The notes under the pieces were generated by a model, which saw nothing but the letters and a program-made list of their open reading frames with translations, was not told where the DNA came from and made no database searches. A program made the position numbers and the translations under genes. From Ignavibacteriota bacterium (lineage in GTDB: Bacteria > Bacteroidota > Ignavibacteria > UBA10030): 61,551 bases of DNA. The stretch spans positions 8,227-69,777 of the forward strand of contig PLMS01000114.1 in assembly GCA_003142575.1 (NCBI GenBank), in the 5' to 3' direction. Positions 32,108 to 55,534 of the stretch are shown here, piece by piece. How positions within the stretch are numbered: position 1 is the stretch's first letter; each line of letters starts with the position of its first letter.

Positions 32108-32770
32108 TTACTCCAGTTTGTATCTTCGCATGAGCGTGACCAGCTTTATTGCATATTCCGGATCCGCTGCGTAATGCTTAGCGAGTTCCATTGCAAATTT
32201 CTCCGGCTGATCCGAATGTTTGAATGCGTTCGCGTAGAGCTTTGAACCCTGAATGTATTGTCCGTACACGTTGAAACATTCCGCAATATTTTTGAAGCGA
32301 GCAAAGCGGACAATCTCCGGAATCGCAATTCCGTTCACAAACCTTTTGTCCTGTTGTATAACATACTTCGGTTGTTGCATGTATTTTTTCACCGCTGCCA
32401 ATGTCATTCCGAAGTAATTCTCCGCTCCCAAACTGCATAGTCCCCACTTTGATTCTAGGATCCATTGTGCAATTACCACGCCTTTCGGAATTTTACAATA
32501 TGCTTCGATGTGAGATGCCAGAGCACGGACTGTGTCTGGAATTTTCCGCAACTGAAATATTCCGGATTTGTCGCGATGGATGATACCTGCAACCAGAATT
32601 GAGTCAGGTTCCGGATTCGTCCATTCTCCAATGACGAAATCCAGGATTTCTTTTGAATCATCTTTGCGTACTTGCTCCGGAGGGTTTTTAAATAGAAGGA
32701 AAAGGATAATGCCGCCAAGCATAAAGCCAAGACACATACCGAGAGATAACCAGCCAATTTTTGATCGCAT
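32108..32770 (-). CDS. Endolysin, glucosaminidase (FlgJ-like) domain with N-terminal signal-anchor
   Basis: GGAG lies 9 nt before ATG 32770; the TTG start at 32809 in the ORF track overlaps the terminator T-run. TM WLSLGMCLGFMLGGIILFLLF. VVIAQWILESKWG...ENYFGM matches the glucosaminidase motif. Confidence 0.75.
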   Translation of the reverse strand: MRSKIGWLSLGMCLGFMLGGIILFLLFKNPPEQVRKDDSKEILDFVIGEWTNPEPDSILVAGIIHRDKSGIFQLRKIPDTVRALASHIEAYCKIPKGVVIAQWILESKWGLCSLGAENYFGMTLAAVKKYMQQPKYVIQQDKRFVNGIAIPEIVRFARFKNIAECFNVYGQYIQGSKLYANAFKHSDQPEKFAMELAKHYAADPEYAIKLVTLMRRYKLE

Positions 32771-32807: not shown

Positions 32808-32856
32808 AAAAAAAAATGCCGAGTCTGCTTTCCTCATTTGGAAAACAAACTCGGCA
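32808..32856 (-). terminator. Intrinsic terminator directly upstream of the lysis/late arm
   Basis: The minus strand reads TGCCGAGT-(24-nt loop with inner TTTCC/GGAAA stem)-ACTCGGCA followed by T9. The T-run ends 37 nt before the endolysin ATG. Confidence 0.7.
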
Positions 32857-32965
32857 CCTTATGATCGGTTTACCGAATATCTAAAGCTTATGTCGTTCCC
32901 GCATAAGCGGGAGTCTTATTCAAATACTGCTACAACGTACGATTTGGTATTTTAAAAGTCAATAG

Positions 32966-35510: not shown

Positions 35511-35848
35511 ACATTCCTCACACAATACTTTATGCAACAATCGCACAGTGGGAACTCACCGAGAGATTGCGGAGAGATGAACCGGCATTCGACGGCTGGA
35601 AATTTATCGCGGAAAAAATCGGACACAAGAGCGCATCGACGCTTCGCAAGATGTGTCTCGAACGCTCCATCGCTAACGCCGCGAAACTTGGGTACGACGA
35701 AGCAATAATTATCATGTCCCTTACGAACGACTATAGACTTTTACATGCTATGAAGGCACGGCTCATCGAACTGCGGCGCTCTGAGGCAGAGCGGCGCAAT
35801 CAACTCAATCTTTTTTCCGAGCCCATCCGCTCTCTGGAGATGCAATGA
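35507..35848 (+). CDS. CII(CP76)-like regulatory protein candidate
   Basis: AAKLGYDEAIIIMSLTNDYRLLHAMKARL resembles the phage CII/CP76 family from memory. 4-nt overlaps on both sides. Confidence 0.35.
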   Translation: MNIPHTILYATIAQWELTERLRRDEPAFDGWKFIAEKIGHKSASTLRKMCLERSIANAAKLGYDEAIIIMSLTNDYRLLHAMKARLIELRRSEAERRNQLNLFSEPIRSLEMQ

Positions 35849-37752
35849 TAGATAATAATATAGAAGTTATAACCCATAACTCATCACTCGAAACTCGTCA
35901 CTCGGAACTTTCTATTCCAACCGTATCAATTTCTAAGTTGACGTCCGAAATTATTTCTCGCACGAATGCGATCGTCTCTCTCGTTAACGAAAAAATAACT
36001 ATCGAGCAAGTTGCTTCCGAAACGGGTATCGCTCTGCCGACAATGTACCGGCATCTTACGAAACTGCGTAAACTTTTTGAGCTTCCTTTGCGAGAGAAAC
36101 TTTTTATGATCTCGAACCATCCGCAGCTTCACCAGGCAATTGAATATTTATTAACACGCCGCGACCGTACCGATGAAGGTTCATTGAGAAGTGCGAAAGA
36201 CCTCAGTGTCGTGGTTCCGACCAACGGCGAATTACTTTCTGTCGAAGACTTTTTGAAGTCACTTTATCCACGCGAAGGTGTAAACGCCTCCAGTTGTTAT
36301 CGTGCGCTCCGCGCTCGATGTATAAATCGCCAAATCATCAAATCTCCAAATCACCAAATCTCTCAATCACCCAATCACGAAATCGCCTCTCTCGAAGATC
36401 TTCCCAGCGAACAGAGCATCACCCGCTTCCTTCGTCAATGGCGTGAAGAATACATTTCCGTCCGCCGCGGCCGCGCGCGCAAGAATGATTTTGAATCTCA
36501 GCAGCAACCGTACGTCACGCGCGATGTCACGCAGTACCTGCCAGGACAGCTCTGGATCGGCGATCATACCGAGCTCGATTTTATGGTCCTGAATGAAAAA
36601 GGAGTTCTCGACCGACGATGGATTTCTTCTTTTATCGACATCCGCACCGGACTCATTATAGGGTATCACTTATCCTGGCAGCCGAACTCGCAGACAGTTT
36701 CGCTTGCATATCGCAATGGCGTTCTGGGTTCGCAGATAAAAGCATTCAACGGTTCGGCATACGTGCAGATCCCGCTCGTCAATGTGCCGGAAGAAATTAT
36801 GATCGATAACGGTAAAGATTATCGCTCCAATTACACGCAGCGCATTTTCGGCAAGATAGATTTCGAAGACACCGCACGACTCAGTATCCAGCGCATGACA
36901 AAACTTCATTACACGCTTCCGTATCACGGTCAATCGAAAGCACAGCAGGAGAGATGGTATAAGACAATTCAAACGATGCTAAAGTATTTGCCGGGGTACA
37001 AGGGGAATCGTTACCAGAATAAACCGGACTCTCTTAAAGATGAAATGAAGCAAGGTGCATGCTTATCGGTCGACAAATTTGACGCGCTCGTTGCTATAGG
37101 CATCAATACTTATAACAACCGCGTGCACCGCTCGCTCAACGAACAATCGCCGATACAATGTTATCTCTCTAATCAACCACATCAGCGCGCGATCGATATG
37201 CGTGTGCTTGACTTCCTGATGCTGAAAGTGCAAGGCAGAAAAATCCGGCGCTGCCAGGTTGCACTCAAGAACGCAGATTACTACAGCGATGCGCTGATGC
37301 CCTATAACGACAAGCCGTGCGACGTGTATTACGATCCGAACGATATGGGTATGGTCTCTATTTATGTGGACGGAGAATTTGCCGCAGTCGCAGTGAGCAA
37401 AGAAATGATCGGGCAGACGGAACGCGGCTGGGAAAAAATCCTGCACGATCGCACACGCGGCGAAAAAGGAATGCAGAAGGAGCTTCAAACGTATCGTAAA
37501 GGCATCTCGAATGCTGATGCAAAGAGGATGCTCCTGGAAGGCGAGCTGATGAATGCTTCACCGGTTTCCCGCGAGCTGCTCATGACCAGTGCACCGACAA
37601 TCACTATGATCACCGGCATCGAACAGCAAGCCGCGCAGAATAAAAATGAATTGGATAGTACAGCAGCTGACATTGAAAAACAAAAAGAAGCACGCAAGCG
37701 CGCGAAACAATCGCCGCTCTCGCTTGCAATGGTGAACGATCGGATAAAATAA
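35845..37752 (+). CDS. MuA-type DDE transposase
   Basis: N-terminal HTH segments. rve-type core with D (LWIGDHTELDF), D (IMIDNGKDYRS) and E (HGQSKAQQERWY). Mu-transposase-like C-terminal region. Followed by the MuB-like ATPase. Confidence 0.85.
   Translation: MIDNNIEVITHNSSLETRHSELSIPTVSISKLTSEIISRTNAIVSLVNEKITIEQVASETGIALPTMYRHLTKLRKLFELPLREKLFMISNHPQLHQAIEYLLTRRDRTDEGSLRSAKDLSVVVPTNGELLSVEDFLKSLYPREGVNASSCYRALRARCINRQIIKSPNHQISQSPNHEIASLEDLPSEQSITRFLRQWREEYISVRRGRARKNDFESQQQPYVTRDVTQYLPGQLWIGDHTELDFMVLNEKGVLDRRWISSFIDIRTGLIIGYHLSWQPNSQTVSLAYRNGVLGSQIKAFNGSAYVQIPLVNVPEEIMIDNGKDYRSNYTQRIFGKIDFEDTARLSIQRMTKLHYTLPYHGQSKAQQERWYKTIQTMLKYLPGYKGNRYQNKPDSLKDEMKQGACLSVDKFDALVAIGINTYNNRVHRSLNEQSPIQCYLSNQPHQRAIDMRVLDFLMLKVQGRKIRRCQVALKNADYYSDALMPYNDKPCDVYYDPNDMGMVSIYVDGEFAAVAVSKEMIGQTERGWEKILHDRTRGEKGMQKELQTYRKGISNADAKRMLLEGELMNASPVSRELLMTSAPTITMITGIEQQAAQNKNELDSTAADIEKQKEARKRAKQSPLSLAMVNDRIK
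36325..36388 (+). repeat. Octamer array, 8 in-phase units, inside the transposase CDS
   Basis: AATCGCCA AATCATCA AATCTCCA AATCACCA AATCTCTC AATCACCC AATCACGA AATCGCCT. Translated as ..NRQIIKSPNHQISQSPNHEIAS... Confidence 0.85.
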
Positions 37753-37944: not shown

Positions 37945-38895
37945 ATGGCACCAACAGTTAACAAGTTCTCACTTTTAGAAGACGACGATCCGGGCCGCAA
38001 GAGCAACGAAGAAATTAAATCCACGCTTCGCGGTCTCATTGAATCGAAAGAGCTCACACTCCGCGACATTGGAAAATTTATCGGCTATTCTACTCCAACC
38101 GTATCTCAAATCCTGAGCGATTCTTACCCGGGCGAAAAAGAAAAGATGGACGAACTTCTCGCCCGTTTCTATCGCAACTGGGTAGCGAGTAATCTTATCG
38201 TCGACACTTCCGTCGTAAAACAGATACACGGCACGATGATGCTCGCGTGGAAAAGAAAACTCATCTGCGAGATCACCGGACACTTCGGCTGCGGAAAATC
38301 AAAATCGTCCGCGCGATTCGTTGCGCTCAATCCGGAAATTTCAAGCTATGTCGAGCTCACCAGCACGACATCGCCTTCGTCGCTTCTCCATCGCATCGGT
38401 GAATCTCTGAATATCGAAAGCCAGATGTCGGGCAGCCAGGACGATCGGCTCTTCGCAATTATCCGCAACCTGCAGCGCAAGCCGCGCCAGCTCGTCATCG
38501 ACGAGGCGGATAATCTTAAAGCGCGCACGCTCGCAATCCTGAAAGACATACACGGCGGTGAAGAAAAGGGGAGATGCTCTATTGTATTGATCGGCACGAG
38601 CCGGCTGAACAAGCTCCTGCAGGATCCGGTGCTCGGCTATCTCAAGCGGCGAATCAGTTTGAAATGCGAAGTCGGCGACATTGGATTCGATGAAGCAAAA
38701 AAGATCGCTGATTTCTGGCCGCACAAATTGGAGCGGGATGAATTGAAAAAAGCATGGGATTGGTCGCTGCGGAAATTCGGCGTCGCAACACTCGTGGTAT
38801 TAATGGCACGCGCTTACGATGTCATGCAGATGCACGAAGAAAAGAAAATCGATGATGACTGCATCCTGATTGCACAAGGAATGGTAGCGGATTAA
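37945..38895 (+). CDS. MuB-like AAA+ transposition ATPase
   Basis: N-terminal HTH (LRDIGKFIGYSTPTVSQIL). Walker A GHFGCGKSKS. Walker B LVIDEADNL. Directly follows the transposase. Confidence 0.75.
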   Translation: MAPTVNKFSLLEDDDPGRKSNEEIKSTLRGLIESKELTLRDIGKFIGYSTPTVSQILSDSYPGEKEKMDELLARFYRNWVASNLIVDTSVVKQIHGTMMLAWKRKLICEITGHFGCGKSKSSARFVALNPEISSYVELTSTTSPSSLLHRIGESLNIESQMSGSQDDRLFAIIRNLQRKPRQLVIDEADNLKARTLAILKDIHGGEEKGRCSIVLIGTSRLNKLLQDPVLGYLKRRISLKCEVGDIGFDEAKKIADFWPHKLERDELKKAWDWSLRKFGVATLVVLMARAYDVMQMHEEKKIDDDCILIAQGMVAD

Positions 38896-39181: not shown

Positions 39182-39715
39182 ATGAATCGCACAATCACCA
39201 AATCTCGCAATCTCTTAATCCAAAGAATCCACGTTCTCAAGCGGGATCTCTCGCTCGATGATGAAACGTACCGCGTTATCCTCCGATCCATTTGCGGCAA
39301 GGATTCCTGCGCCAACATCGACGATGAATATCTTAATCTTATCAAGCAGCAGATGGAGAATATGCTTGATCGCATGCGCTCCGGATCCAACTTAAAATTG
39401 AAGAACGCACAGGAACACAAGAAGATTGCGAAGCTCGGCTACCTGCTCGGATGGAACTGGAATGACATTGCCGGATTCTGTTTCAAAGAAACAAAAAAGA
39501 AGTCGACACAGAGCTGCACCGCAGCCGAGCTCGGGAAAATAATAAACGGCATGATCGCGCTGATCAACGATGGACTCGCAAAAGGCACATTGAAATTCGC
39601 GCATCCGGACTTGCAAGCGTTTCTAAAATATTCTCAATCGCCCAGTCGCACAATCACTAAATCACAAATCACCCAATCACAAAATCGACAATCACCTAAT
39701 CACTCAATTTCTTAA
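39182..39715 (+). CDS. GemA/gp16-like (DUF1018) protein
   Basis: RNLLIQRIHVLKRDLSLDDETYRVILRSICGKDSCANIDDEYLNLI matches the GemA pattern. Both termini are encoded by octamer arrays. Confidence 0.6.
   Translation: MNRTITKSRNLLIQRIHVLKRDLSLDDETYRVILRSICGKDSCANIDDEYLNLIKQQMENMLDRMRSGSNLKLKNAQEHKKIAKLGYLLGWNWNDIAGFCFKETKKKSTQSCTAAELGKIINGMIALINDGLAKGTLKFAHPDLQAFLKYSQSPSRTITKSQITQSQNRQSPNHSIS
39185..39224 (+). repeat. Octamer array, 5 units (codes the GemA-like N-terminus)
   Basis: AATCGCAC AATCACCA AATCTCGC AATCTCTT AATCCAAA. Confidence 0.75.
39636..39713 (+). repeat. Octamer array, 10 units (codes the GemA-like C-terminus)
   Basis: AATCGCCC AGTCGCAC AATCACTA AATCACA AATCACCC AATCACAA AATCGAC AATCACCT AATCACTC AATTTCTT. 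Confidence 0.85.
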
Positions 39716-40550: not shown

Positions 40551-40955
40551 ATGATTGAATTAGCACCAGAAGAACGCCGCAACACCATCATCCGCAACTG
40601 CGGAGCCAGACCGATCGGCGAAAGATCGATCACACAAAACGGAGCCGATGTATTTGCATACTTTCTCGATCCGCTTACCAAGTCGACATTATTCTTACCG
40701 GTCGAAGAAGTGACCGCGTATAATGTCAGGCGCAAATTGCAGGAAGCGCGGACAAGATTTGGAGCAGCAATTATCGAGTTAGCACTGATCGGCAACCTCG
40801 AACTCATCGAGCAGTTTAAACTCTTTATTCTTTCTCTCGAGCGGACGAAGAATTTGCCAGAACCGGTCGTGAATGCCGCTGCTAATGCTGCCGTCATGGA
40901 AATCTATTCATACGAATCGGCAATCATGGAGCCGGAAAATGCCACGGCAATATAA
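40551..40955 (+). CDS. Hypothetical early protein
   Basis: 134 aa with AAGGAG upstream. Confidence 0.4.
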   Translation: MIELAPEERRNTIIRNCGARPIGERSITQNGADVFAYFLDPLTKSTLFLPVEEVTAYNVRRKLQEARTRFGAAIIELALIGNLELIEQFKLFILSLERTKNLPEPVVNAAANAAVMEIYSYESAIMEPENATAI

Positions 40956-41568
40956 ATTAAAATACACCAACGAAGATCTTCTCAATGCCGCATGTGAGTT
41001 CTATAAAAAGAATAATACTCCGCCGCGCATTGCCGACTTCACTCCTGGTTATGCCGTGACAGTCAAGAAAAGATTTGGGTCATGGTCCGCCTATATCGAT
41101 GCGGCGCTCAAGATGCGGTCTAATTACCATATCTGGAAGCCGGAAGAATTAACACTTCTTGTATGTGCGTTTTGGAATAAGCACCATCGCTTTCCAGCCT
41201 ACACCGAGCTTGCAGAAGACGGCAGGGACATCCACGCGATCATTGCGAAACAATTCGGATCGATGAATAAATATTTTGAGAGCGCTCTCGGCACAAGTCC
41301 GCGAGTTGAAGTTCTCCGCGCTATACAGGAGCTCACGCCTCCCGGGTGCGATGTTGCTACACCATCGGAGATCATTGCGCAGATAAGAAAGAAAATGATC
41401 TTCCCAACGAACCTCTGCAGGATAACAATTCGCTTTCTTGCCTCTGACGGGTACATAGTCAGCGGCAAATACGACAGAACAAGATGGCACAAGCTCACCC
41501 CATCCGGCAAAACATTTCTCAATAAATTTCTCCCCCTTAACAAGGGGGAGACTAAGAGGGGGTCATAA
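40939..41568 (+). CDS. Early protein with duplicated FGSW/FGSM helical repeats and winged-helix-like C-terminus
   Basis: NTPPRIADF...VKKRFGSWSAYIDAAL and HHRFPAYTEL...IAKQFGSMNKYFESAL resemble homing-endonuclease-associated repeats. The C-terminus overlaps a TCTCCCCC element. Confidence 0.4.
   Translation: MPRQYKLKYTNEDLLNAACEFYKKNNTPPRIADFTPGYAVTVKKRFGSWSAYIDAALKMRSNYHIWKPEELTLLVCAFWNKHHRFPAYTELAEDGRDIHAIIAKQFGSMNKYFESALGTSPRVEVLRAIQELTPPGCDVATPSEIIAQIRKKMIFPTNLCRITIRFLASDGYIVSGKYDRTRWHKLTPSGKTFLNKFLPLNKGETKRGS
41529..41562 (+). repeat. TCTCCCCC-hairpin / purine mirror element, copy E
   Basis: TCTCCCCC-TTAACAA-GGGGGAGA-CTAAGAGGGGG. Confidence 0.7.
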
Positions 41569-42168: not shown

Positions 42169-42588
42169 ATGACAAGCTTCGCAAAAAATAATTTACGCGC
42201 AGATCATATCCGAAGGTTCGGACAGACGAGCGGAACGCCGTTATTCGACTCCGTAGGGGCGAGGTCTCCTCGCCCGACAACCACGCAGCAGACCCGGTTT
42301 GAAGCCGCACCAAAGTCCATTCCAACGGGCGCTGAGACGCGCAAGCTCGCGTATGCGCTTCTCAATCATGATCAACTGCACCTCGGAGAAATGTGCGAAA
42401 AGGTCTGGCTGACATTTGCCGAGTTCGGTCCCGCAACAAACTTTGAGATCGCGCAACGCCTCGGCAAAGAATCCGGCTGGGTCTCAGCTCGCAATAACGA
42501 TCTGCGCAAATTAGGATTACTCACCGCCGATGTGAAGCGAAAATGCCGCGTGACCGGCAACGTGGTGCAGACCTGGAGAGTTTTATGA
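42169..42588 (+). CDS. Winged-helix DNA-binding early protein
   Basis: FGPATNFEIAQRLGKESGWVSARNNDLRKLGLL...VTGNVVQTW is wHTH-like. The N-terminal part contains a hairpin element, so the start is uncertain. Confidence 0.4.
   Translation: MTSFAKNNLRADHIRRFGQTSGTPLFDSVGARSPRPTTTQQTRFEAAPKSIPTGAETRKLAYALLNHDQLHLGEMCEKVWLTFAEFGPATNFEIAQRLGKESGWVSARNNDLRKLGLLTADVKRKCRVTGNVVQTWRVL
42253..42275 (+). repeat. GTAGGGGC-hairpin element (GAGG variant, inside an ORF)
   Basis: GTAGGGGCGAGGTCTCCTCGCCC. Confidence 0.7.
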
Positions 42589-46271: not shown

Positions 46272-46595
46272 ATGACCACCAAACCAATCAAGCAACTCGA
46301 CGATGCAATGCTCGCAGAAATGCAACGAGAGAATAGAAACGGACTCAGTTTCCGCGAGATAAAAAAAATATGCAAGGATGTAGTGCCGTTTCTTGAATGC
46401 TATGGTAAAGAAGTATTGGAAGGCAGCCCATTTGTCCATGCGGTGCTTTCATACATCGAAAATCTTGAAAACAACGGATTGGTAAAAGTAACGCGCAGAG
46501 GCAAATTTATTCTCCGCATCGATCTGACCGAGCGTGGAAAGGAATTAATCAAGAACACAATTTTCTCTGATAAGGATGAAAGAGCAAAGCATTGA
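46272..46595 (+). CDS. Winged-helix protein, last early gene (late-regulator candidate)
   Basis: LSFREIKKICKD...LSYIENLENNGLVKVTRRGKFILRIDLTERG is wHTH-like. Sits just upstream of the late-control region. Confidence 0.4.
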   Translation: MTTKPIKQLDDAMLAEMQRENRNGLSFREIKKICKDVVPFLECYGKEVLEGSPFVHAVLSYIENLENNGLVKVTRRGKFILRIDLTERGKELIKNTIFSDKDERAKH

Positions 46596-46620
46596 AAATC
46601 TTTCGTTTTTTCATTATACT
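46592..46620 (+). promoter_or_regulatory. Sigma-70-type promoter
   Basis: TTGAAA (46592-46597), 17-nt spacer, TATACT (46615-46620). Confidence 0.55.
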
Positions 46621-46635
46621 ACAATCGTTCAAATG

Positions 46636-46732
46636 CTGTACCGGTTCGCCTCTCCGACACGGGGTGGATGTCCAGGTGTTTTTTGCCCGGGCAACCTTCC
46701 CGTTTACCGTGAGGGGCGGGGCGTCGGTACAG
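46636..46732 (+). ncRNA. Candidate structured RNA / leader element
   Basis: About 10 nt downstream of the predicted transcription start. CTGTACCG (46636-46643) pairs with CGGTACAG (46725-46732). Inner CGCCUC/GGGGCG and CACGG/CCGUG pairings are possible. By hand count about 62 of 97 nt are G/C, against AT-rich flanks. No ORF. Confidence 0.3.
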
Positions 46733-46794
46733 TGGCGTGAACAAAGATTGTCCGGACAAGTTCCATTTTTACGTGCCAAATCACCCGGGGAGAA

Positions 46795-47001
46795 ATGCTG
46801 ATGCCGAGTCTTAACGACCTTATCAACTTATTGGATAAAATATCTAAAACAAAATACCCGCAAAAGATCGAAGAAATTAATTATAATGGACACGGTGAGT
46901 TTCATTGGAAATTTCTGGAACAAGATGTGCTCGCGAGCGAATATACTCCTCGTGCACCAAGACAGCATGAATGCAGTCATGCCGCCGAATCTAAGACATA
47001 A
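46795..47001 (+). CDS. Hypothetical small protein
   Basis: 68 aa (or 66 aa from ATG 46801, with GGGGAG upstream). Confidence 0.35.
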   Translation: MLMPSLNDLINLLDKISKTKYPQKIEEINYNGHGEFHWKFLEQDVLASEYTPRAPRQHECSHAAESKT

Positions 47002-47008
47002 CTTTGCA

Positions 47009-47037
47009 TTGACATACGGTTAAGAAGTTAGTAGATT
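47009..47037 (+). promoter_or_regulatory. Sigma-70-type promoter upstream of the terminase arm
   Basis: TTGACA (47009-47014), 17-nt spacer, TAGATT (47032-47037). Confidence 0.6.
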
Positions 47038-47073
47038 AGACATAGTTTAATACCGGGTTATCGGATCATAACG

Positions 47074-47137
47074 AGCCCCAATCTTTTTGTAAGGATTTGA
47101 TTAATCAAATCCCCACAAGAGGGTTGGGGCTTTTTTT
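47074..47137 (+). terminator. Intrinsic terminator in the leader of the terminase arm
   Basis: AGCCCCAA (47074-47081) pairs with TTGGGGCT (47124-47131), followed by T7. An inner perfect hairpin GGATTTGATTAATCAAATCC lies at 47093-47112. Confidence 0.65.
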
Positions 47138-47143
47138 GTTTTT

Positions 47144-47167
47144 GTAGGGACACGATATATCGTGTCC
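47144..47167 (+). repeat. GTAGGGGC-hairpin element
   Basis: GTAGGGACACGATATATCGTGTCC, followed by GAAAGGTGAGG and ATG 47186. Confidence 0.75.
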
Positions 47168-47185
47168 GATGAAAGGTGAGGTTGT

Positions 47186-47659
47186 ATGGCACACAAGAAC
47201 GAACGAATCGATGCCAAACGTTTCTACATCGAAGAAGGTCTCGATGTTGCCGCGATTTCAAAGCGCATCAATATCCCTGAAACTACAATCTACCGATGGA
47301 AATCGGATGATGTGACAAGCGGAAACGATTGGGATAAAGAACGCGAAGCAATCGGACTCACTTCGTTCTCCGCAACAAAAAGCATGCTCGCCATCGTTGT
47401 AGAGCGCATGGCACAGATGGTCGAAGAGATTAAGACTTCAAAGAAAATTAATCCATCGGAAGTATACGCAATCCGCCAGCTGATGCTCTCCGCGAAAGCG
47501 CTGCAAAAAGATGTCGACAATTACGGCAATGTGCTTCTGATGACCTCTGAGCTGACAGAATTCCTCGCCGAGCGAGATAATGAAACCTTACAGCTTATTC
47601 AACCGCTGCTGATAGAGTTTGGAAATGCAATGAGTAAAAAATACGGCAAGAAACGATAA
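47186..47659 (+). CDS. Small-terminase-like HTH protein (DUF1804-like)
   Basis: RFYIEEGLDVAAISKRINIPETTIYRWK is an HTH. Directly upstream of the large terminase. Confidence 0.55.
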   Translation: MAHKNERIDAKRFYIEEGLDVAAISKRINIPETTIYRWKSDDVTSGNDWDKEREAIGLTSFSATKSMLAIVVERMAQMVEEIKTSKKINPSEVYAIRQLMLSAKALQKDVDNYGNVLLMTSELTEFLAERDNETLQLIQPLLIEFGNAMSKKYGKKR

Positions 47660-47664
47660 CCAAT

Positions 47665-47696
47665 CTCCTCTCCTTTAGGAGAGGGTTAGGGTGAGG
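47665..47696 (+). repeat. TCTCCCCC-type hairpin element, copy G (degenerate)
   Basis: CTCTCC-TTTA-GGAGAG-GGTTAGGGTGAGG, immediately before ATG 47701. Confidence 0.6.
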
Positions 47697-47700
47697 TTTT

Positions 47701-49353
47701 ATGTTGACTCAGAAAGACTTTGAAAAGCAATATAGCGAACTGATGCAGCGCATTCAGAAGCAAGCGACGCCGTTTCCGAACGACAGCGCCGAGAAAAAAC
47801 GCGCGCGTATTGCTCGCGCTAAAGTCGACAAGTTCTTTTTCTGCATAACCTATCTGCCGCATTACTGCGAAACTAAAGAGGAGTATCGGACGATATGGAA
47901 GACTCCGGATGCGCCGCTGGATCCAATCGATGCCGGTTTCTCTCCGATTCATCCTGAATTTTTTAAGATCGCGGAGCTGCCAAATATATTTTCTATTGTA
48001 GCTGCCTTCCGCGAATCCGCAAAAGATACACTCCTCGGCAAAGCCGATCCGCTGCATAAGTTGTTGTTTGCCGAACGATGGTTCGTCCCGATTATTGCCA
48101 AGACGCAGGATAAAGCCGAAACGAAATGCGTTCCGATAAAGCTCGAGTTGGAAATCAACGAGCGTATCAAGAATGACTTCGGCAAATTGCAGGGAAGTGT
48201 CTCATGGGAGTTCGGTGACTTCATAACCACCACGGGCCGCAAGGTGAAGGGCTACGGACGCGAGCAATCGCTGCGCGGCGAGGAAAATTTCGGACATCGT
48301 CCGGATCATATAATTTTAAACGACATTGACGATCCGACAAAGCCGGATTCTCCGGCACTCGTTCAGAAATTTATAGATAGTGTAAAGCAGGACATTCTCA
48401 AAGCTGTTAACTCTCCTCACTGGAGCGCGTTGCTTCTTTGTAATTTTACGGTCAAAGGAAATATCATAGATGAGCTGATGACCGGAAAATACACATCGCA
48501 TTTTAATAAACGCATCTTCCGTGCTCTCGTTGAAAATCCTCTGGCAACAAAAGACGATCGCGCAATTGCTAAAAAATGTAGAGAAGCCGGCTTTACCGAC
48601 AGCGAGAAGAGCGCCTGGGAGTTCCGACATCCGACATTGAAGCTTCTGCAGGACCGTAAAAATGATCCGGAAACGTTCCAACCGGAAATGCAGATGATGC
48701 CGCGCAGTCGAAGGGACCAGAAATTTAAAGACCATTATTTCCGCTTCCACACACGCGAGCAGCTCGCAGCGCGAACTTACACGAATTATACTTTTGTGGA
48801 TCCATCGGCTAATGATGCCGGCGATTACAAAGCTGTCATCACCGTTGGCGTTGCAGGATTGCCGGATGGCACGATCCATATTCCGGTCCGTCGCGCCTGG
48901 ATTCAACAAGGACCTATCGATGAAATGATCGATGCGACATATCGCCAAAGGCGTGAGTTCCATTCAAAACTTGTCGGCGTCGAAACGAACGGATTTCAAA
49001 TCCTTCTTAAACGCGAATACATGCGGCTTCAAAAGAAGTATAAAGAGTTGCTGCCGTTCTTCGAGGTCGTTCACACCGGCGAGAGTAAAGAGAGCCGTAT
49101 CGAGCGGATCGTTCCATTCGTGAAAGAAGGAATTATCACATTCGACCAATCCGATCCGGATCAGGAATTACTCATTCGGCAATGCAAAGCGTTTCCGCAA
49201 GGTGGACAAGTTTCTGCAGGCGGGCTCGGTGATGATGGTCCGGATACGCTTGCCGGTTGTGTTGAACTGATCGAAAAATTCCCGCACGCCGGTGAAGTAG
49301 CATATGAGAGTGTCTCAAAACGTGAAGCCGTTTTTGAAAAAGGCGCATGGTGA
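47701..49353 (+). CDS. Terminase large subunit (Mu gp28-like)
   Basis: 550 aa. The C-terminal nuclease-like motifs are FVDPSANDAGDYKAVITVGV, GVETNGFQ and GDDGPDTLAGCVE. Position supports the call. Confidence 0.75.
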   Translation: MLTQKDFEKQYSELMQRIQKQATPFPNDSAEKKRARIARAKVDKFFFCITYLPHYCETKEEYRTIWKTPDAPLDPIDAGFSPIHPEFFKIAELPNIFSIVAAFRESAKDTLLGKADPLHKLLFAERWFVPIIAKTQDKAETKCVPIKLELEINERIKNDFGKLQGSVSWEFGDFITTTGRKVKGYGREQSLRGEENFGHRPDHIILNDIDDPTKPDSPALVQKFIDSVKQDILKAVNSPHWSALLLCNFTVKGNIIDELMTGKYTSHFNKRIFRALVENPLATKDDRAIAKKCREAGFTDSEKSAWEFRHPTLKLLQDRKNDPETFQPEMQMMPRSRRDQKFKDHYFRFHTREQLAARTYTNYTFVDPSANDAGDYKAVITVGVAGLPDGTIHIPVRRAWIQQGPIDEMIDATYRQRREFHSKLVGVETNGFQILLKREYMRLQKKYKELLPFFEVVHTGESKESRIERIVPFVKEGIITFDQSDPDQELLIRQCKAFPQGGQVSAGGLGDDGPDTLAGCVELIEKFPHAGEVAYESVSKREAVFEKGAW

Positions 49354-49364
49354 TTAATTCTTTT

Positions 49365-49388
49365 GTAGGGGCACGACATGTCGTGCCC
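49365..49388 (+). repeat. GTAGGGGC-hairpin element
   Basis: GTAGGGGCACGACATGTCGTGCCC, followed by GAAAGGTGA and ATG 49405. Confidence 0.75.
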
Positions 49389-49404
49389 GAAAGGTGAATG
49401 TAAA

Positions 49405-49665
49405 ATGAAGAGACGAATCAAAGCTTTTTTCATCGCAACGCTCTCATTCATATTTCCGGTGAGCTGGAGGCATGGATTAAGAAGGCGCTGCCATTTTGGA
49501 AAATTAAACTCATTCGATCATCCCCTCTTTGTGAAATTTCTCGGATTGTTTTTCGATGTGCGCACGAGTGTAAAAGGAAATGTCGAGTTTTGGTTCGGTG
49601 AAAGAGAAAAAGTGAAGCAGAAGAGACGTTTTAGAAAATTATTAAAGCGAATCGTGGCACAATGA
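49405..49665 (+). CDS. Small basic protein
   Basis: 86 aa with an Arg/Lys-rich C-terminus (KQKRRFRKLLKRI). Confidence 0.35.
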   Translation: MKRRIKAFFIATLSFIFPVSWRHGLRRRCHFGKLNSFDHPLFVKFLGLFFDVRTSVKGNVEFWFGEREKVKQKRRFRKLLKRIVAQ

Positions 49666-49760
49666 AGCATTGGTTATTAATATTAATTTTATTCATCGTT
49701 CAAACGTCCTCCTCGGATGCTGTAAAAACAACACATCATCCACCATCACAGGAGTACTGT

Positions 49761-50558
49761 ATGAACAAACTTTTTGCATACCCGGGCGGCAAGTGGCCGA
49801 TCCGTCATCTCGTCATTTCAGCATATCCTCCACACACGACTTACGTCGATGTGTTTGGCGGGTCCGCTGCACTGATTATCTCTAAAGAGAAGAGTGCCGG
49901 CGAAGTCTTCAACGATAAGAACGAAGAACTCGCTAACTTTTTCCGTGTTGTCAAGCATCGGCCGGCTGAACTTGCCGAACGCGCAAAACACTGGCTGCAT
50001 AGCCGAGCGCTGTGGAATGAATTGAAAAAGGCACAGCGCTCTCCTGATGAAATAGAACGCGCTTTTGTATTTTGGGTTTCTCTGGCAGATAGTTTCGGCG
50101 GCATGGGAAAGAACTTTGGAACTGCCAAATCTGGCATTCGATCTGTTACGCATTCAAGAGAATATCTTTCGGCTGTAGCGGAAAGATTCGCTGGTGTCCA
50201 TGTGGAATGTCTCGACTTTCGCGGATGCATCCGCGTTTATGATTCACCGGAAACATTCTTTTATATCGATCCGCCATATCCGGATACGCGAGGCGGTTCT
50301 TCAAATTACGATCTCCTCACCGAACAGGATTGGATCGATCTGCGCGACCAATTGAAGAGCATCAAAGGAAAGTTTTTACTTTCCTCGAACGATCATAAAC
50401 TGGTGAAGAAATTGTTTGCCGAATTCAATATTCGGAAGATTAATGTTCGTGTCACGCTGCCAAAAAATAATAGCAACGCGATGCGAAAGGAACTGCTCAT
50501 CAGTAATTATACTCTGCCTCCTCTTTGCACGAAGGAAAAACTGTCAAAATCTGCATGA
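49761..50558 (+). CDS. N6-adenine DNA methyltransferase (Dam-like, D12 class)
   Basis: AGGAG lies 7 nt before ATG 49761. MNKLFAYPGGKWP. FVDVFGGSAA (AdoMet motif). FFYIDPPY (catalytic DPPY). Confidence 0.8.
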   Translation: MNKLFAYPGGKWPIRHLVISAYPPHTTYVDVFGGSAALIISKEKSAGEVFNDKNEELANFFRVVKHRPAELAERAKHWLHSRALWNELKKAQRSPDEIERAFVFWVSLADSFGGMGKNFGTAKSGIRSVTHSREYLSAVAERFAGVHVECLDFRGCIRVYDSPETFFYIDPPYPDTRGGSSNYDLLTEQDWIDLRDQLKSIKGKFLLSSNDHKLVKKLFAEFNIRKINVRVTLPKNNSNAMRKELLISNYTLPPLCTKEKLSKSA

Positions 50559-50696
50559 AAAAGTATTTTAAATACGGCATCTGCCTGTTTATAACGCTCA
50601 CAATCGCGTACGTTTGCACCACGTTGCGTAGTTGTGGCGAGTCCGGGCAAATATCCGACCAACAACTATTTATCTAATAATCAAAGGAGTATTATC

Positions 50697-51272
50697 ATGG
50701 TGCCAACTTCATTAACTGCGATACTCATCCTGTTTGTATTCGCATTTGTTATAAAAAAAATCACCGGCATGCCTGTATTCGCCTGTGCGATGATGGCTGG
50801 TAAATCCGATTGGCTCGAGAATAAGCTCATTGACTTTTTATTTAGGGGTCAAACATTGCCGCTTACGGGCGCAACGGCGTCATGGTCGGCAGCGCCTGCG
50901 CTGTTTATTGCTCTTGGCACCGCCGCATCAGATGCATCATTCACAGAGTTACCGGCTACCGGCAGTTACGCGCGTGTAAAAATATGCGCCGGTGCAGCAA
51001 TGGCGCTAACCGACATGGCGGGTACACAAGCAGCCGCATCAACGACGGCTTCGAGCGGCACGAGCGGACAAACAAGCAATAATAATGCCGTCACATTTCC
51101 AACCGCGACCGCAGATTGGAATAGCGCGGCGATAATAGGTTACTTCGCAATTTACGACGCCTTAACAAATGGCAATCTGCTTTACTGGGCAGCATTGACA
51201 ACGGCACGTGCAGTAACCAATGGCACGACTGCTTCCTTCGCAGCAGCAGCATTGACCGTCACGGAAGACTGA
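50697..51272 (+). CDS. Conserved phage protein with hydrophobic N-terminus and fibre/collar-like beta domain
   Basis: AAAGGAG lies 6 nt before ATG 50697. N-terminus MVPTSLTAILILFVFAFVIKKITG. The pattern LIDFLFRGQ...GSYARV...TSNNNAVTFPTATADW...FAIYDALTNGNLLYWAAL recalls a common phage family, from memory. Confidence 0.45.
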   Translation: MVPTSLTAILILFVFAFVIKKITGMPVFACAMMAGKSDWLENKLIDFLFRGQTLPLTGATASWSAAPALFIALGTAASDASFTELPATGSYARVKICAGAAMALTDMAGTQAAASTTASSGTSGQTSNNNAVTFPTATADWNSAAIIGYFAIYDALTNGNLLYWAALTTARAVTNGTTASFAAAALTVTED

Positions 51273-51286
51273 TAATATTGAGATGA

Positions 51287-52489
51287 ATGATGCCTGAGAT
51301 AGTTGATTCATATAGTGAAAGCAATTGGAGTCAATCGGCTAATTGTAACGCATCAGCTTACATCGGAGAGGCTCAATGCTTTACCGGCAATGGCGATAAA
51401 CTATCTAGTGTGAAATTTTATTGTTATAAAATAGGCTCGCCAACGGGGAATGTTTACGCAAAATTATATGCGATGACTGGAACCTATGGATCAACTGGAA
51501 CCGCAACGGGAAGTGTCTTGGCGACATCCAGTCCCGTTGATATAGGCTCTAGTAATTTTCCAACAACAAAAAATTTAGTAGAATTTACTTTTGATGGCAC
51601 ATATCCATTAGGAAATGGAGTCCATTATGTCGTTGAAATTGAATATAATGGTGGAGACGGCTCGAACACACTTGCGGTAGGAAAGGATACGACGTCACCT
51701 ACGCATGGTGGCAACAATGTCCAACTATATAATACTGGAATATGGTATGCTCGAGCCGTAAATGATTTATGTTTTTATATTTATGGTGCAACATCTACTA
51801 TTGTTCTTGCTGGTAATATTTCTGCTGTCGCATCTTCCGCCGGCGACCTTTGTGGATCTGTTTCCATTGGCGGTGGCATATCTGCTTCAAGTTTTTTAGC
51901 AGCTCTTCTTTCTAAATCTCTTTCTATTGCAGGAAACATTTCTGCTGTCGCGTATTCTACTGGCGACCTTTATGGATCTGTTTTTATCGGCGGTGGCATA
52001 TCTGCTTCAAGTTTTTTAGCGGCTATTCTTTCCAAATCTCTTTCGATTGCCGGAATTGCCGCTGGGTCTGCTATAATAACCGGATCGATGTTTCAGACTC
52101 TTTCTATTAATGGAGTTGCTTCCGGATTTGCAACGGCAACTGGCTCTATGTTCCAAACTCTTTCGATTGCCGGAGATATTTCAGCATCGTCTGTCTTGTC
52201 GGGTTTATTTGGCTTCCATCTTTCTTTGAATGGCAATATGTATGGGATCTCGTACTTATTGGGTGAGATTCTTATTACACCTTTGTCGTGGTTGGAGAAA
52301 TTGCGATGGATAGCAAAGAGAATAGACGTCGGCGCTCAACGTCGATCAGCAAAGAATATTAATGTGAACGCACAGCGATTATCAGCAAAAGATATTGATG
52401 TGAACACACAGCGATCCTCTGCAAAGACAATCGGTATCGAAACTCAGCGCAACGCAGCAAAAAATCTGGATAACTATACCAACAGGTGA
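51287..52489 (+). CDS. Repeat protein: N-terminal beta domain + 8 x 20-aa repeats + 4.5 x 12-aa basic repeats
   Basis: The 20-aa periodicity is S-I-x-G-x-x-S...L. The C-terminal repeat is AK.I.V.AQR.S. The underlying DNA carries 120-, 60- and 36-bp tandem repeats. Confidence 0.5.
   Translation: MMPEIVDSYSESNWSQSANCNASAYIGEAQCFTGNGDKLSSVKFYCYKIGSPTGNVYAKLYAMTGTYGSTGTATGSVLATSSPVDIGSSNFPTTKNLVEFTFDGTYPLGNGVHYVVEIEYNGGDGSNTLAVGKDTTSPTHGGNNVQLYNTGIWYARAVNDLCFYIYGATSTIVLAGNISAVASSAGDLCGSVSIGGGISASSFLAALLSKSLSIAGNISAVAYSTGDLYGSVFIGGGISASSFLAAILSKSLSIAGIAAGSAIITGSMFQTLSINGVASGFATATGSMFQTLSIAGDISASSVLSGLFGFHLSLNGNMYGISYLLGEILITPLSWLEKLRWIAKRIDVGAQRRSAKNINVNAQRLSAKDIDVNTQRSSAKTIGIETQRNAAKNLDNYTNR
51809..52228 (+). 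repeat. Intragenic tandem repeats (2 x 120 bp, then 60-bp units)
   Basis: 51809-51928 and 51929-52048 are near-identical. 52049-52108, 52109-52168 and 52169-52228 are related 60-mers. 36-bp units follow at 52313-52489. Confidence 0.8.
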
Positions 52490-52493
52490 CAGC

Positions 52494-53216: not shown

Positions 53217-53273
53217 GAGCAAGCTGCCTAAAAATGATACGCGCACAGCGCGGAACAAATTCAAAGGACCATT

Positions 53274-54692
53274 ATGAAAAAAAAGAGTAACCCGACATCT
53301 AAAATAAAATCGAAGTTGAGCGATCAGTTAACCGAGCGAATTCCTGTCGTCAGTATCACCGATCGGTTCTCAGATTATCCTGGACGCCACTTAACACCGC
53401 GCCGGCTTGCAGAAATTCTCGAAGAAGCCGACTCCGGATATGTTCACCGGCAGAATGAATTGTTCTCGGAGATGTTAGAGAAAGATGCCAAGCTTTTGGC
53501 AGTTTTTCAGGCCCGCAAATTATCGGTTATCCGCAGGAATAGGACCGTTATTCCTTATTCGACAGCTCCAAAAGACCTGAAAATAGCAGAAGATGTTCAG
53601 ATTAACTTTAAAGGTTTGAGGCATTTAAATTTTATTATCGGCAACATTGCCGATTGCGTGCCCAAGGCCTACTCTGTGAATCAAATCAACTGGAATCAGA
53701 GAGATAGAAAATACATGTTCGATGATATAACTTTTGTCGATCCGAAAAAATTCCGTCTTGGAAAGGCCACCGATCTCTATAGCGATCCGAATGAATTGCG
53801 CATGCTGATAGATCCGAATCGAATCCAATATTATAAAGGAATATTCAGCGATGAGGAACTTGCGAATAGTCCTGTCGATGGTGTAAGTATAGAGAACGAT
53901 CCGATGGTAAGACAGCGATTTATTATCGCACATTCAAATGCAATGAGTGGATTAGTAGCGCGAACCGCACTCATGCGTCCATTAACATATCTTTATCTTT
54001 TTAAAAACTACGATATTAAATGGTGGCTGAAATTTGCTGAGACCTTGCTTGGCTATCGAGTTGGAAAATACGATACATCCCAACCGGATCAGAAGGCACT
54101 ATTGATTACAGCAATACAGGGATTAGCAGAAGATTCGGCGGCTGTGATTTCAAAAGAATCTGATATTACATTTGTGCAAATGGCAGCGCAAGCGGCAAGC
54201 CATCTTGTTTATGGTGACCTGCAGAAATGGGTAGACGATACATACGGACAACTTGTCCTGGGCCATACCGGATCGTCACAAGCCACACCCGGAAAACTTG
54301 GCGGCGAGGACATGGCGAAGGAGGTTAAACAGGAATTTGTTGAAGCCGATGCGGCTGTTATCGATGAAGCAATCTCTGATGATCTTTTTAAACCTTATGT
54401 CATCGCGAATTACGGTCCACAAGACGGCTATCCTTATTGTCAAACCGATGTATCGCAAGCGCTTGATATGCTGAAGGAAACAAATATCGATTTAAATTTA
54501 CAAAAAATGGGGTTCCCTTTAACATTGCGCTACGCGAAGGAGAAATATGGACGGCCGCTTCCAAATCCTGACGATCCAGAGGATAAAATACTTGTTCCAT
54601 CGCCAGTTGCATCTCCCAACAGCTTTCAGAATCAAGAAAACGATAAGACAGTAGCTGCTGACGGTAAAAAAAAACTTCTAACACAACGGTAG
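53274..54692 (+). CDS. Portal protein, Mu gp29/DUF935 family (frame-0 product)
   Basis: LTPRRLAEILEEADSGYVHRQNELFSEMLEKDAKLLAVFQARKLSV matches the DUF935 N-terminal pattern. Ends 18 nt after an A9 run. Confidence 0.8.
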   Translation: MKKKSNPTSKIKSKLSDQLTERIPVVSITDRFSDYPGRHLTPRRLAEILEEADSGYVHRQNELFSEMLEKDAKLLAVFQARKLSVIRRNRTVIPYSTAPKDLKIAEDVQINFKGLRHLNFIIGNIADCVPKAYSVNQINWNQRDRKYMFDDITFVDPKKFRLGKATDLYSDPNELRMLIDPNRIQYYKGIFSDEELANSPVDGVSIENDPMVRQRFIIAHSNAMSGLVARTALMRPLTYLYLFKNYDIKWWLKFAETLLGYRVGKYDTSQPDQKALLITAIQGLAEDSAAVISKESDITFVQMAAQAASHLVYGDLQKWVDDTYGQLVLGHTGSSQATPGKLGGEDMAKEVKQEFVEADAAVIDEAISDDLFKPYVIANYGPQDGYPYCQTDVSQALDMLKETNIDLNLQKMGFPLTLRYAKEKYGRPLPNPDDPEDKILVPSPVASPNSFQNQENDKTVAADGKKKLLTQR

Positions 54693-55534
54693 ATGAGTCT
54701 GCCTACGAAAAGCGCGTCAACGATGTCACCGAAAACGCAATCGAAGGCGCTATACCCATCTATCAACCCCTCGTTGAAAAGCTCTCAAAGGTTATTCGAA
54801 AGGCGGATAATTTTGAGTCCGCACAGTCCGCACTAATTAAATTTACCGACAAAGACTTCTTAAAATCTTTTTCCGCATACCTTCTTAATACACTCGAGAC
54901 ATCGGCAGCTCTCGGCGCCAGCCTTATAGTCCAAAAGGACGCTGCGCTCAGTGGAGAACAGAAAATCGTAGGGAAAAACATCGGCGACGATTGGTTTGTC
55001 TGCGATAATAACGGTGTGAATATCTCATTTAATGTTACATCGAAAGAGGTATTGGATTACCTGCGTGAGAAATCTATAAAGATTGCTGGAGTAGAACAGA
55101 AGGAATTGCTCGAGTCGATCAAGCAAGAGTTAATAAAGGCTGTTGAGGATGGAAAGAGTTTTGATGAATTGAAAGCTAATATCGATGAGCTATTTGACAG
55201 TGCGGGCGTGACAAAATTGTCGTATAGTCACATCCAATTGGTTTTTCGGATGAATACATTCGCGGCTTATTCGGTGGGACAAGCACAAAAAGTCGCGGAT
55301 ATGATCGATCAATTTCCATTGGCGTACTTCTCGCCAATCCATGATGGTCGATCACGTCATTTGCCACTCGAGGGCTATTACAATACAGATTCAATTCCGC
55401 TTCCGCCGATAAATTATAATTGCCGATGCGGCGTCCGATACATCCATATATCACAGATTACCGGCAACGAGGAAGTTTATGAGACGCCGCCAGCACCAGA
55501 ACTGATCGTTTTCGATCAGCGCGACGGCATGTGA
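54668..55534 (+). CDS. Start-less open frame: portal-C-terminus-like segment plus Mu F / SPP1 gp7 head-morphogenesis domain
   Basis: 289 codons are open from 54668, with no ATG/GTG/TTG before GTG 55016. The frame is reachable from the portal frame by a -1 slip on A_AAA_AAA (54668-54674). MuF motifs: QLVFRMNTFAAYSVGQ, FSPIHDGRSRHLPLEG, NCRCG. Confidence 0.6.
   Translation, partial: KKTSNTTVDESAYEKRVNDVTENAIEGAIPIYQPLVEKLSKVIRKADNFESAQSALIKFTDKDFLKSFSAYLLNTLETSAALGASLIVQKDAALSGEQKIVGKNIGDDWFVCDNNGVNISFNVTSKEVLDYLREKSIKIAGVEQKELLESIKQELIKAVEDGKSFDELKANIDELFDSAGVTKLSYSHIQLVFRMNTFAAYSVGQAQKVADMIDQFPLAYFSPIHDGRSRHLPLEGYYNTDSIPLPPINYNCRCGVRYIHISQITGNEEVYETPPAPELIVFDQRDGM

Follow-up and report, generated by a model that had tools for sequence, protein, structure and literature searches.

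How does a Mu-type phage turn on late genes that lie behind a terminator? The question is raised by a locus in which two late operons are each preceded by a predicted promoter, a short leader and an intrinsic terminator. The window, meaning the whole stretch of 61,551 nucleotides (61.5 kb) analyzed here, encodes a Mu-type transposable phage, as judged from its gene content. The genes include a Mu transposase C-terminal domain (35845..37752), a MuB/TniB-like AAA protein (37945..38895), and GemA (39182..39715). The late genes are divided between two divergent arms. The right arm on the plus strand encodes TerS, the large terminase subunit TerL (47701..49353; phrog_38, E = 1.4e-54), a Dam-type methylase, a fibre-like protein, the portal (53274..54692), and a MuF-like protein (55016..55534). 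The left arm on the minus strand encodes the endolysin, followed by the head protease, major head protein, adaptor, and tape measure and tail genes. A search for cultured relatives by DNA returned no match in 50,697 phage records, and the best TerL identity to cultured phages is ~27%, to Mu-like phages of Helicobacter, Campylobacter, and Rhodobacter. A tRNA/tmRNA search returned nothing.

An earlier note on this DNA placed a promoter of the form TTGACA-17-TAGATT upstream of the right arm, and the element is present as described (47009..47037, plus strand). The -35 hexamer TTGACA (47009-47014) is separated from the -10 hexamer TAGATT (47032-47037) by a 17-bp spacer, and the hexamers and their spacing are kept in relatives. 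The zero-mismatch sequence TTGACA-17-TAGATT occurs only here within the 61.5-kb window. Transcription is predicted to start near 47044, which gives a leader of ~95 nt that ends in a 60-nt hairpin (47073-47132) with a T7 tract. The stem segments reported for this hairpin, AGCCCCAA/TTGGGGCT and an inner GGATTTGA-TTAA-TCAAATCC, are present in the sequence, but the outer stem is longer than described. On folding, it extends to 18 bp (47073-47090 with 47115-47132) and stacks on the 8-bp inner stem with its UUAA loop. The complete intrinsic terminator occupies 47073..47137 on the plus strand, and its T7 tract (47131-47137) is followed by a G and then by T5. The terminator hairpin alone has a folding energy of -36.3 kcal/mol. 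The 147-nt segment 47044-47190 has a minimum free energy (MFE) of -57.4 kcal/mol (z = -7.0), and 0/200 shuffled sequences fold equally well.

A second hairpin, a Shine-Dalgarno sequence (SD), and the start codon of the small terminase gene had also been described downstream of the terminator, and all are found where they were placed. The second hairpin is a 20-bp perfect palindrome, GGACACGATATATCGTGTCC, at 47148..47167 (plus strand), between the terminator and the SD. The palindrome is a repeated intergenic element, with three copies in the window compared with 0.01 expected by chance, and it is not kept in the leaders of relatives. The SD GAAAGGTGAGG (47171-47181) precedes the ATG at 47186 of a small terminase-like gene (47171..47659 including the SD, plus strand) that matches DUF1804, the Mu gp27 family, and opens the right late arm.

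The left arm mirrors this arrangement on the minus strand, as the note had claimed. The predicted late promoter (32934..32962) consists of TTGACT (32962-32957), a 17-bp spacer, and TACGTT (32939-32934), and the leader is ~120-130 nt long. The intrinsic terminator (32808..32859) has a core stem UGCCGAGU...ACUCGGCA (32856-32817) followed by a T9 tract (32816-32808). With 20 pairs and a folding energy of -28.7 kcal/mol, it far exceeds in strength every other minus-strand terminator between positions 1 and 40000, and the scan of this strand revealed no further strong terminators in the left arm. The first gene of this arm is a membrane-anchored glucosaminidase-type endolysin (32108..32770, minus strand) that begins with the ATG at 32770. 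For both arms, promoter activity and termination efficiency are predicted from these sequence elements, and promoter function in hosts labelled Bacteroidota is assumed from their conservation.

Neither promoter-like nor terminator-like single matches are enriched in the window (17 promoter-like matches compared with 17.5 expected). Single promoter- or terminator-like matches are therefore uninformative on their own, and the case that the elements did not arise by chance rests on conservation. Relatives were found by TerL, TerS, and DNA-pattern searches. These uncultured phages come from peat, sediment, and other metagenomes, some in metagenome-assembled genomes labelled Bacteroidota, Kryptoniota, and Chitinophagaceae, and their TerL identity to the window protein ranges from 94% down to ~44%. 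The order of promoter, leader, terminator, and late gene recurs in more than 20 related Mu-like phages in which the stems differ in sequence. The shared promoter form is TTGAC[AT] (occasionally TTGATT or TTGAAT), exactly 17 bp, and TA[GATC][AG]TT. Across 17 promoters aligned from right and left arms, both hexamers and their 17-bp separation are conserved, the spacer and flanks vary, and all but four promoters, which have TTGATT or TTGAAT, carry TTGAC[AT] as the -35 element. The left arm of the closest relative (L069) is preceded by the same promoter as the left arm of the window, and TTGACA-17-TAGATT or near variants (TAAGTT, TACATT) stand before the left arms of L064, L066, L063, L068, L070, and L025. 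The leaders of the relatives vary in length and sequence, and in each the hairpin is followed by a T-run, an SD, and the start of TerS or the endolysin gene.

The T-run is often just 11-22 nt from the start codon in the relatives, which leaves no room for a further promoter. This spacing upholds the view that both late arms sit behind a promoter and a terminator with no promoter in between. With no space for a separate promoter, transcription of the late genes has to pass through the terminator. The upstream operon of L025 has a terminator of its own ahead of the late promoter, which indicates that the late terminator is a separate device and not merely the end of the upstream operon. The earlier note recognized no Mor/C homolog, and the searches agree, with no PF08765 hit in ~30 ORFs or in the 12-member o42169 family. 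Regulated read-through is the natural reading of these findings, given that a promoter and a terminator precede both arms, that there is no room for another promoter, and that a Mor/C homolog was not found. The layout has exceptions. There is no leader before TerS in L019, L020, L034, and L041, and the proximal module of L025 has a poor U-tract.

Comparison of the leaders revealed a conserved RNA hairpin directly 5' of each terminator. The hairpin is newly recognized, and the motif is absent from Rfam. It has the form GGGU[UA]UCC[GAUNANAA]GGA-GCCC and is located at 47055-47078 on the plus strand and at 32875-32852 on the minus strand. Seven base pairs make up the hairpin: P1 is a 4-bp helix (GGGU/GCCC), P2 is a 3-bp helix (UCC/GGA), and they are separated by a 2-nt bulge that is usually UA. 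The loop consensus is GAU[A/C]A[N]AA. Most loops are 8 nt long, and those of the L009 phage and L023 are 5 nt long. In the right-arm hairpin (47055..47078), a putative antiterminator, P1 pairs GGGU (47055-58) with GCCC (47075-78), the UA bulge is at 47059-60, and P2 pairs UCG (47061-63) with CGA (47072-74) around the loop GAUCAUAA (47064-71). The corresponding putative antiterminator of the left arm (32852..32875, minus strand) reads CGGU[AA]ACC[GAUCAUAA]GGU-GCCG. The two hairpins of the window thus differ by compensatory changes in both P1 and P2 and have an identical loop. As a sequence motif, the box occurs exactly twice in the window, both times at the leaders.

Covariation supports the bulged hairpin. 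An initial model with a 6-bp helix (alignment columns 8-13 with 30-35) gave 78% paired cells and was replaced by the bulged 4+3-bp model, which gives 98-99%. In 19 distinct leaders, 99.2% of cells are paired, and 18 double-change cells are distributed over five of the seven pairs. When left arms are added to give 28 distinct leaders, 98.5% of cells are paired and 21 are double-compensatory. None of 500 shuffles reached the covariation score in either set, and control windows slid along the alignment gave 35-60% (19 leaders) and 35-61% (28 leaders). Individual leaders illustrate the changes. The consensus P2 UCC/GGA is UCG/CGA in the right arm of the window and GAC/GUC in the left arm of L069, and the left arm of the window has CGGU/GCCG as P1 and ACC/GGU as P2. 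A G-C pair of P1 becomes A-U in L047 and L007.

A covariance model built from the alignment was used to search the 61.5-kb window. It returned two hits, the right-arm hairpin (38.5 bits, E = 1.7e-8) and the left-arm hairpin (36.7 bits, E = 5.7e-8), and the next hit scored 8.3 bits. The model also detects copies that were not in the training set, including the opposite arm of several relatives, and the module is found on both divergent arms in at least six relatives, as it is in the window. A scan of IMG/VR with the stem consensus and any loop identified 56 viral stretches. Eight of these are the group's own modules, which had already been seen with terminators. The other 48 lie outside the phage group, and inspection of each one found a terminator after none, so this generic pattern yielded no new true copies in IMG/VR. 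A box match in L020 falls within a coding region and was taken as chance. The distant relatives L008 and L051-L054 keep the promoter and terminator, and the canonical hairpin is absent. Rfam gave 0 hits at the gathering threshold over the whole window, and a search of 46400-47300 at E <= 10 returned only weak generic-hairpin hits.

The loop type is the same on the two unlinked arms of a single phage. The window carries GAUCAUAA twice, the L004 phage carries GAUCAAAA twice, and the L009 phage carries AACUA twice. Matched loops on unlinked arms are what one phage-specific, trans-acting reader predicts.

The position of the hairpin relative to the terminator is its defining feature. The 5' arm of the terminator begins with the same 5-6 nt that form the 3' strand of the hairpin; in the right arm of the window, the two structures share 47073-47078. 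The hairpin and the complete terminator are therefore mutually exclusive. The promoter lies anywhere from about 18 to 110 nt away from the hairpin, while the hairpin is invariably adjacent to the terminator. Folding of the nascent RNA that ends at 47078, and of RNA that ends 5 nt into the terminator arm, gives the hairpin as the MFE structure, and folding of the complete leader gives the terminator. The hairpins have energies of -5.6 to -9.3 kcal/mol and the terminators of about -20 to -42 kcal/mol. From these energetics alone, the short hairpin would need a clamp to persist. These results establish that the elements are present and conserved, and that a covariation-supported hairpin overlaps the terminator. 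It is the terminator, not the promoter, whose position the conserved element follows, and this anatomy fits a terminator-specific antiterminator/terminator switch.

With moderate confidence, we read the late arms as terminator-specific attenuators in which the late genes are on when a factor holds the hairpin. In each arm, a sigma70-type promoter close to consensus, a short leader, and a strong intrinsic terminator would together form an attenuator. In the default state, the far more stable terminator would win, and RNAs of roughly 95-130 nt would be released. Read-through from upstream would be blocked as well, from the early operon at the right terminator and from the repressor-side operon at the left one. 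Late in infection, a trans-acting and probably phage-encoded factor would recognize the loop and bulge, which by their conservation would be a natural recognition surface, and clamp the hairpin. The clamped hairpin would leave the base of the terminator stem unpaired beside the U-tract. RNA polymerase would then continue into the terminase and portal genes on the right and into the lysis, head, and tail genes on the left, and both arms would be expressed together. That such a factor exists, which protein it is, and which way the switch runs are inferred. In metatranscriptomes, fragments were found in six runs. In the four runs examined, five contigs map to 46300-47800, which is not enough for an assessment of termination; one of them covers 46924-47065, across the right promoter.

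The region immediately upstream of the right promoter contains two conserved elements. A small protein of ~65 residues, ORF68, is encoded directly upstream of the promoter (46795..47001, plus strand), and ORF68 or a homolog occupies this position, where lambda has Q, in most relatives. An initial homology search found only ORF68 itself, and a profile search gave 23 homologs. Upstream of ORF68 is a ~140-nt conserved structured RNA with a candidate pseudoknot (46622..46762, plus strand), preceded by a sigma70-like promoter, TTGAAA-17-TATACT (46592..46620, plus strand). The structured RNA is supported by covariation and is present in the window and in L001, L004, L005, L007, L022, L023, and L048. 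The left arm has no copy, and L009, L010, L013, L039, L043, and L050 lack the RNA near the leader. Pairing between this RNA and the hairpin region was considered and rejected, with RNAduplex z scores for cognate pairs of -2.2 to +0.9, no better than those of non-cognate pairs.

A protein that reads the hairpin was sought among the phage genes. Searches of ~30 ORFs against Pfam, and of smaller sets against PHROGs and NCBIfam, gave no match to Q, N, NusG-like, CAT/PRD, ANTAR, or Mor/C proteins. Sequence searches against the PDB likewise pointed to no such factor, and for the early and immunity-side ORFs all of these searches together returned winged-helix hints only; three winged-helix proteins are encoded (42169..42588, 40873..41568, and 46272..46595). 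ORF68 is the best candidate for the hairpin-binding factor, and the support for this assignment is weak. L009 and L023, which have 5-nt loops, share a distinct ORF68 subtype, their two ORF68 proteins are mutual best matches, and the L009 phage has this 5-nt loop on its unlinked left arm as well. The TerS proteins of L009 and L023 are 46% identical, compared with 83% identity between the TerS proteins of L009 and L010. The link between ORF68 subtype and loop is weak because it represents essentially one evolutionary event. The AF2 model of ORF68 is a helix with a β-hairpin at low confidence (pLDDT 68), and Foldseek found no structural neighbor of the model. ORF68 proteins are not notably basic, and the family is also present in relatives that lack a TerS leader. 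We suggest only tentatively that ORF68 and the bulged hairpin constitute a new RNA-binding antiterminator system that synchronizes two divergent late operons in a new Mu-type clade of FCB-group bacteria, with production of the factor gated by the pseudoknotted leader RNA at 46622-46762.

The earlier note likened the locus to the lambda PR'/tR' logic and proposed Q-type or RNA-mediated processive antitermination. The overall layout is borne out, but the processive mechanism is unsupported, with the conserved element abutting the terminator. In Q-type, promoter-loaded antitermination, a protein would engage polymerase paused near the promoter, and the hairpin would be incidental or a secondary loading signal. 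The lambda PR'-tR' layout is matched by the consensus promoter, the short terminated leader, and the small conserved ORF68 upstream, and the promoter spacer is partly conserved, which may simply reflect shared ancestry. Pause-like -10 words after the start site, which the note proposed to look for, are mildly enriched, with TAnnnT in the first 30 transcribed nt of 11/17 leaders compared with 7.1 expected (P about 0.03). However, these words have no fixed position and are absent from 6/17 leaders, including the left arm of the window. Pfam, PHROGs, and NCBIfam gave no Q-family hit, the ORF68 model did not match the Q structures in the PDB, and no additional strong terminators, for which processivity would be needed, were seen in the left arm. 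With the conserved element bound to the terminator and not to the promoter, we consider Q-type control unlikely. An RNA-based version, similar to the put/EAR elements, is very improbable. Here the RNA at 46622-46762 would modify its own polymerase, which would then pass the terminator at 47132. This RNA is conserved and covariation-supported, lies on the same strand with its own promoter upstream in the window and seven relatives, and is spanned by one metatranscriptome contig that matches its bounds. Nevertheless, the left arm has the same terminator module and no copy of the RNA, the six relatives listed above lack it near the leader, and the hairpin and promoter that lie between the RNA and the terminator would be left unexplained.

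Two other explanations accept the hairpin and assign it a different role. The logic could be reversed, with a hairpin that by default lets some polymerases pass and with a lysogeny-phase or host factor, or the kinetics of transcription, destabilizing it to enforce termination. The overlap fits either direction of control, and the hairpin is the MFE structure of the nascent RNA before the 3' arm of the terminator emerges. The terminator is nevertheless 15-35 kcal/mol more stable and has only 4-6 bp to displace, the strong U-tracts argue for efficient termination by default, and the loop and bulge are kept like the recognition surface of protein-stabilized antiterminators. Reversed control therefore seems improbable, if somewhat less so than either processive scheme. 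Alternatively, the leaders could be small-RNA genes of ~95 nt (right) and ~120-130 nt (left), with the hairpin as a regulator, decoy, or sponge and the late genes reached by leaky read-through or by a general modification of polymerase. A promoter, a structured element, and a Rho-independent terminator are the standard anatomy of a bacterial small RNA, each phage has two copies with the same loop, and one copy (L062) precedes tRNA genes and not late genes. In opposition, the window contains no complementary target (the core CSGATCATAA and its complement have 12 hits compared with 11 expected), and no cognate pairing with the neighboring structured RNA was detected. The element stands before late operons that have no other promoter, and what is conserved is the overlap with the terminator. 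We regard this explanation as no likelier than Q-type control. The production of small RNAs is compatible with attenuation. Lambda 6S RNA is also made.

The attenuation that we favor has precedents in bacterial operons. Like the RAT sequences read by BglG, SacY, and LicT, the hairpin is short and imperfect, has a conserved loop and bulge, and lies directly 5' of the terminator, overlapping its 5' arm. In both cases the terminator is the structure expected by default, polymerase should read through only when a factor stabilizes the hairpin, and the effect would be specific to one terminator and not processive. Unlike RAT, the hairpin has an unrelated sequence and shape (4 bp, 2-nt bulge, 3 bp, 8-nt loop), the scanned ORFs gave no CAT_RBD or PRD hit, and the element would control the late genes of a phage on two divergent operons instead of a sugar or nitrogen operon. 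PyrR-type and ANTAR attenuators have a looser likeness to the module. ANTAR systems use an ANTAR-domain protein and two tandem hexaloop hairpins, the second of which overlaps the terminator. The present module differs from the AmiR/NasR/EutV systems in having a single hairpin with an 8-nt (rarely 5-nt) loop and no ANTAR hit.

The likeness to phage antitermination lies in the arrangement of the genes. As in lambda PR'-tR', a strong and apparently unregulated promoter is followed by a short terminated leader and promoterless late genes, and a small gene lies upstream. Lambda Q uses a recognition element at the promoter and a sigma-dependent pause, and it modifies polymerase processively. In the present phages, the conserved element instead overlaps the terminator, and neither a Q-like protein nor a fixed pause element was found. 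The lambda N/nut system uses a small conserved hairpin (boxB) in the nascent transcript as a cis-acting antitermination signal, the role that the present hairpin would have. The nut sites do not overlap a terminator and come with boxA. Terminator overlap is the defining conserved feature here, no boxA was noticed on inspection of the leaders, and no arginine-rich N-like protein was identified. In HK022 put/EAR systems, each operon that has to be antiterminated carries a structured RNA just downstream of its promoter, whereas the left arm and many relatives lack the RNA at 46622-46762. Lambdoid phages already show the logic of a promoter and a terminated leader ahead of late genes, and bacterial attenuators that of an antiterminator that overlaps a terminator. 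The defining proteins and sequences of neither family were found, and the module thus appears to work like lambdoid leaders and bacterial attenuators without belonging to either.

The covariation-supported hairpin is a compact RNA motif absent from Rfam, and it may help to annotate the starts of late operons in uncultured phages of Bacteroidota and Kryptoniota. The sigma70-like promoters and intrinsic terminators should work in Escherichia coli reporters, which would allow a clean experiment. The analysis also leaves a short list of candidate readers. Should the reader prove to be a new small RNA-binding protein, it would add a family of antiterminators and an orthogonal switch with swappable loops. 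The phage resembles Mu in its MuA-like transposase, MuB-like ATPase, GemA, and DUF1804/gp27-like terminase subunit, and in late genes that must be switched on after replication. In textbook accounts, Mor and C are the activators that time late gene expression in Mu-type phages. Late activation by Mor/C in Mu has been extended to the beta clamp (PMC12867686). In the present phages, no Mor/C protein was found, a consensus -35 element takes the place of an activator site, a terminator lies between the promoter and the genes, and the late genes form two divergent arms. This clade thus appears to depart from the Mor/C paradigm and to use terminator control, with one RNA signal on both divergent late arms.

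The late genes of the window are divided between two arms, a layout that is unusual among Mu-type phages. The rightward arm (47186-55534, plus strand) encodes the terminase, portal and MuF proteins, and the leftward arm (1056-32770, minus strand) encodes the lysis, protease, major head and tail genes. The repressor/transposase region separates the two. The two-arm layout is kept in the related uncultured Mu-like phages L064, L025 and L058/L063. The right late arm also contains a D12-class N6-adenine (Dam-type) methyltransferase gene (49662..50558, plus strand), and GATC is present in the hairpin loops of the late leaders in the window and in several relatives. A link between this enzyme and the loop GATC is unlikely, because many relatives carry GATAAC instead.

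Other copies of the hairpin-terminator module were found outside the window. The left side of the relative L025 has two of them in succession, at 1290-1460 and 470-600 (minus strand). The distal module comes after a terminator that belongs to the upstream operon and a TTGACA-17-TAGATT promoter, and an extra gene of approximately 219 codons follows it. The proximal module has a poor U-tract and no obvious promoter. The module at 4650-4746 (minus strand) of L062, a 26-kb viral contig, scored 30 bits against the covariance model of the hairpin and lies upstream of two apparent tRNA genes that were called by eye. The module is therefore not confined to terminase or lysis genes, given these apparent tRNA genes. 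In the relatives L063 and L069, inserted HNH/AP2-type endonuclease-like genes separate the left-arm terminator from the endolysin gene; judging from this pair, the late leader appears to be an insertion hotspot.

A second structured RNA of approximately 140 nt, with its own sigma70-like promoter, lies at 46592-46762 (plus strand) between ORF 46272..46595 and ORF68, the small ORF directly upstream of the right late promoter. The RNA is conserved in relatives (L001, L004, L005, L007, L022, L023 and L048) and had no match in Rfam. Its long outer helix has double changes at 9 pairs. A candidate pseudoknot, 86% paired, joins the 3' tail GAUUGUCCGG (46751-46760; GGUUGUCCGG in the relatives) to the internal segment CCGGGCAACC (about 46692-46701); the internal segment is also claimed by a competing apical helix. 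One metatranscriptome contig has bounds of exactly 46622-46762.

Two further short elements were identified. The 20-bp palindrome GG[A/G]CACGATAnATCGTG[T/C]CC occurs in perfect or near-perfect form at 28095-28114, 37894-37913 and 47148-47167, three copies versus 0.01 expected by chance. All three are in intergenic gaps, a degenerate second copy adjoins the one at 28095, and the palindrome is not conserved in the leaders of relatives. The hairpin CTCCTCTCC-TTTA-GGAGAGG, followed by GTTAGGGTGAGG, is located immediately 5' of the TerL start (47664-47698) and is resembled by elements in L013, L019 and L048-L050. Similar CCTCTCC...GGAGAGGG...GGGTGAGG elements in relatives precede the start codons of various genes and may represent a repeated translation-initiation or REP-like element.

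Two plus-strand genes encode winged-helix proteins. The 40873..41568 product carries a C-terminal AspA/PadR-like winged helix in addition to two homing-endonuclease-associated repeats (PF18780). Relatives having the leader module encode it as well, and it is missing from the gemA-TerS interval of the leaderless relatives L019 and L020. An HNH-repeat protein is encoded directly upstream of the late promoter in L001, L008 and L056. The 42169..42588 family (11 homologues, alignment A10) is kept in nearly all relatives and combines an N-terminal basic motif whose final PLF is invariant (RFGQxxGLPLF[D/E]) and a C-terminal Lrp/MarR/TFE-like winged helix. The Mu late-gene activators C and Mor were recently demonstrated to need a beta-clamp-binding motif, QL[SD]LF (PMC12867686), which the LPLF of this family resembles. 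The 42169..42588 proteins could be analogous, but not homologous, to Mor/C.
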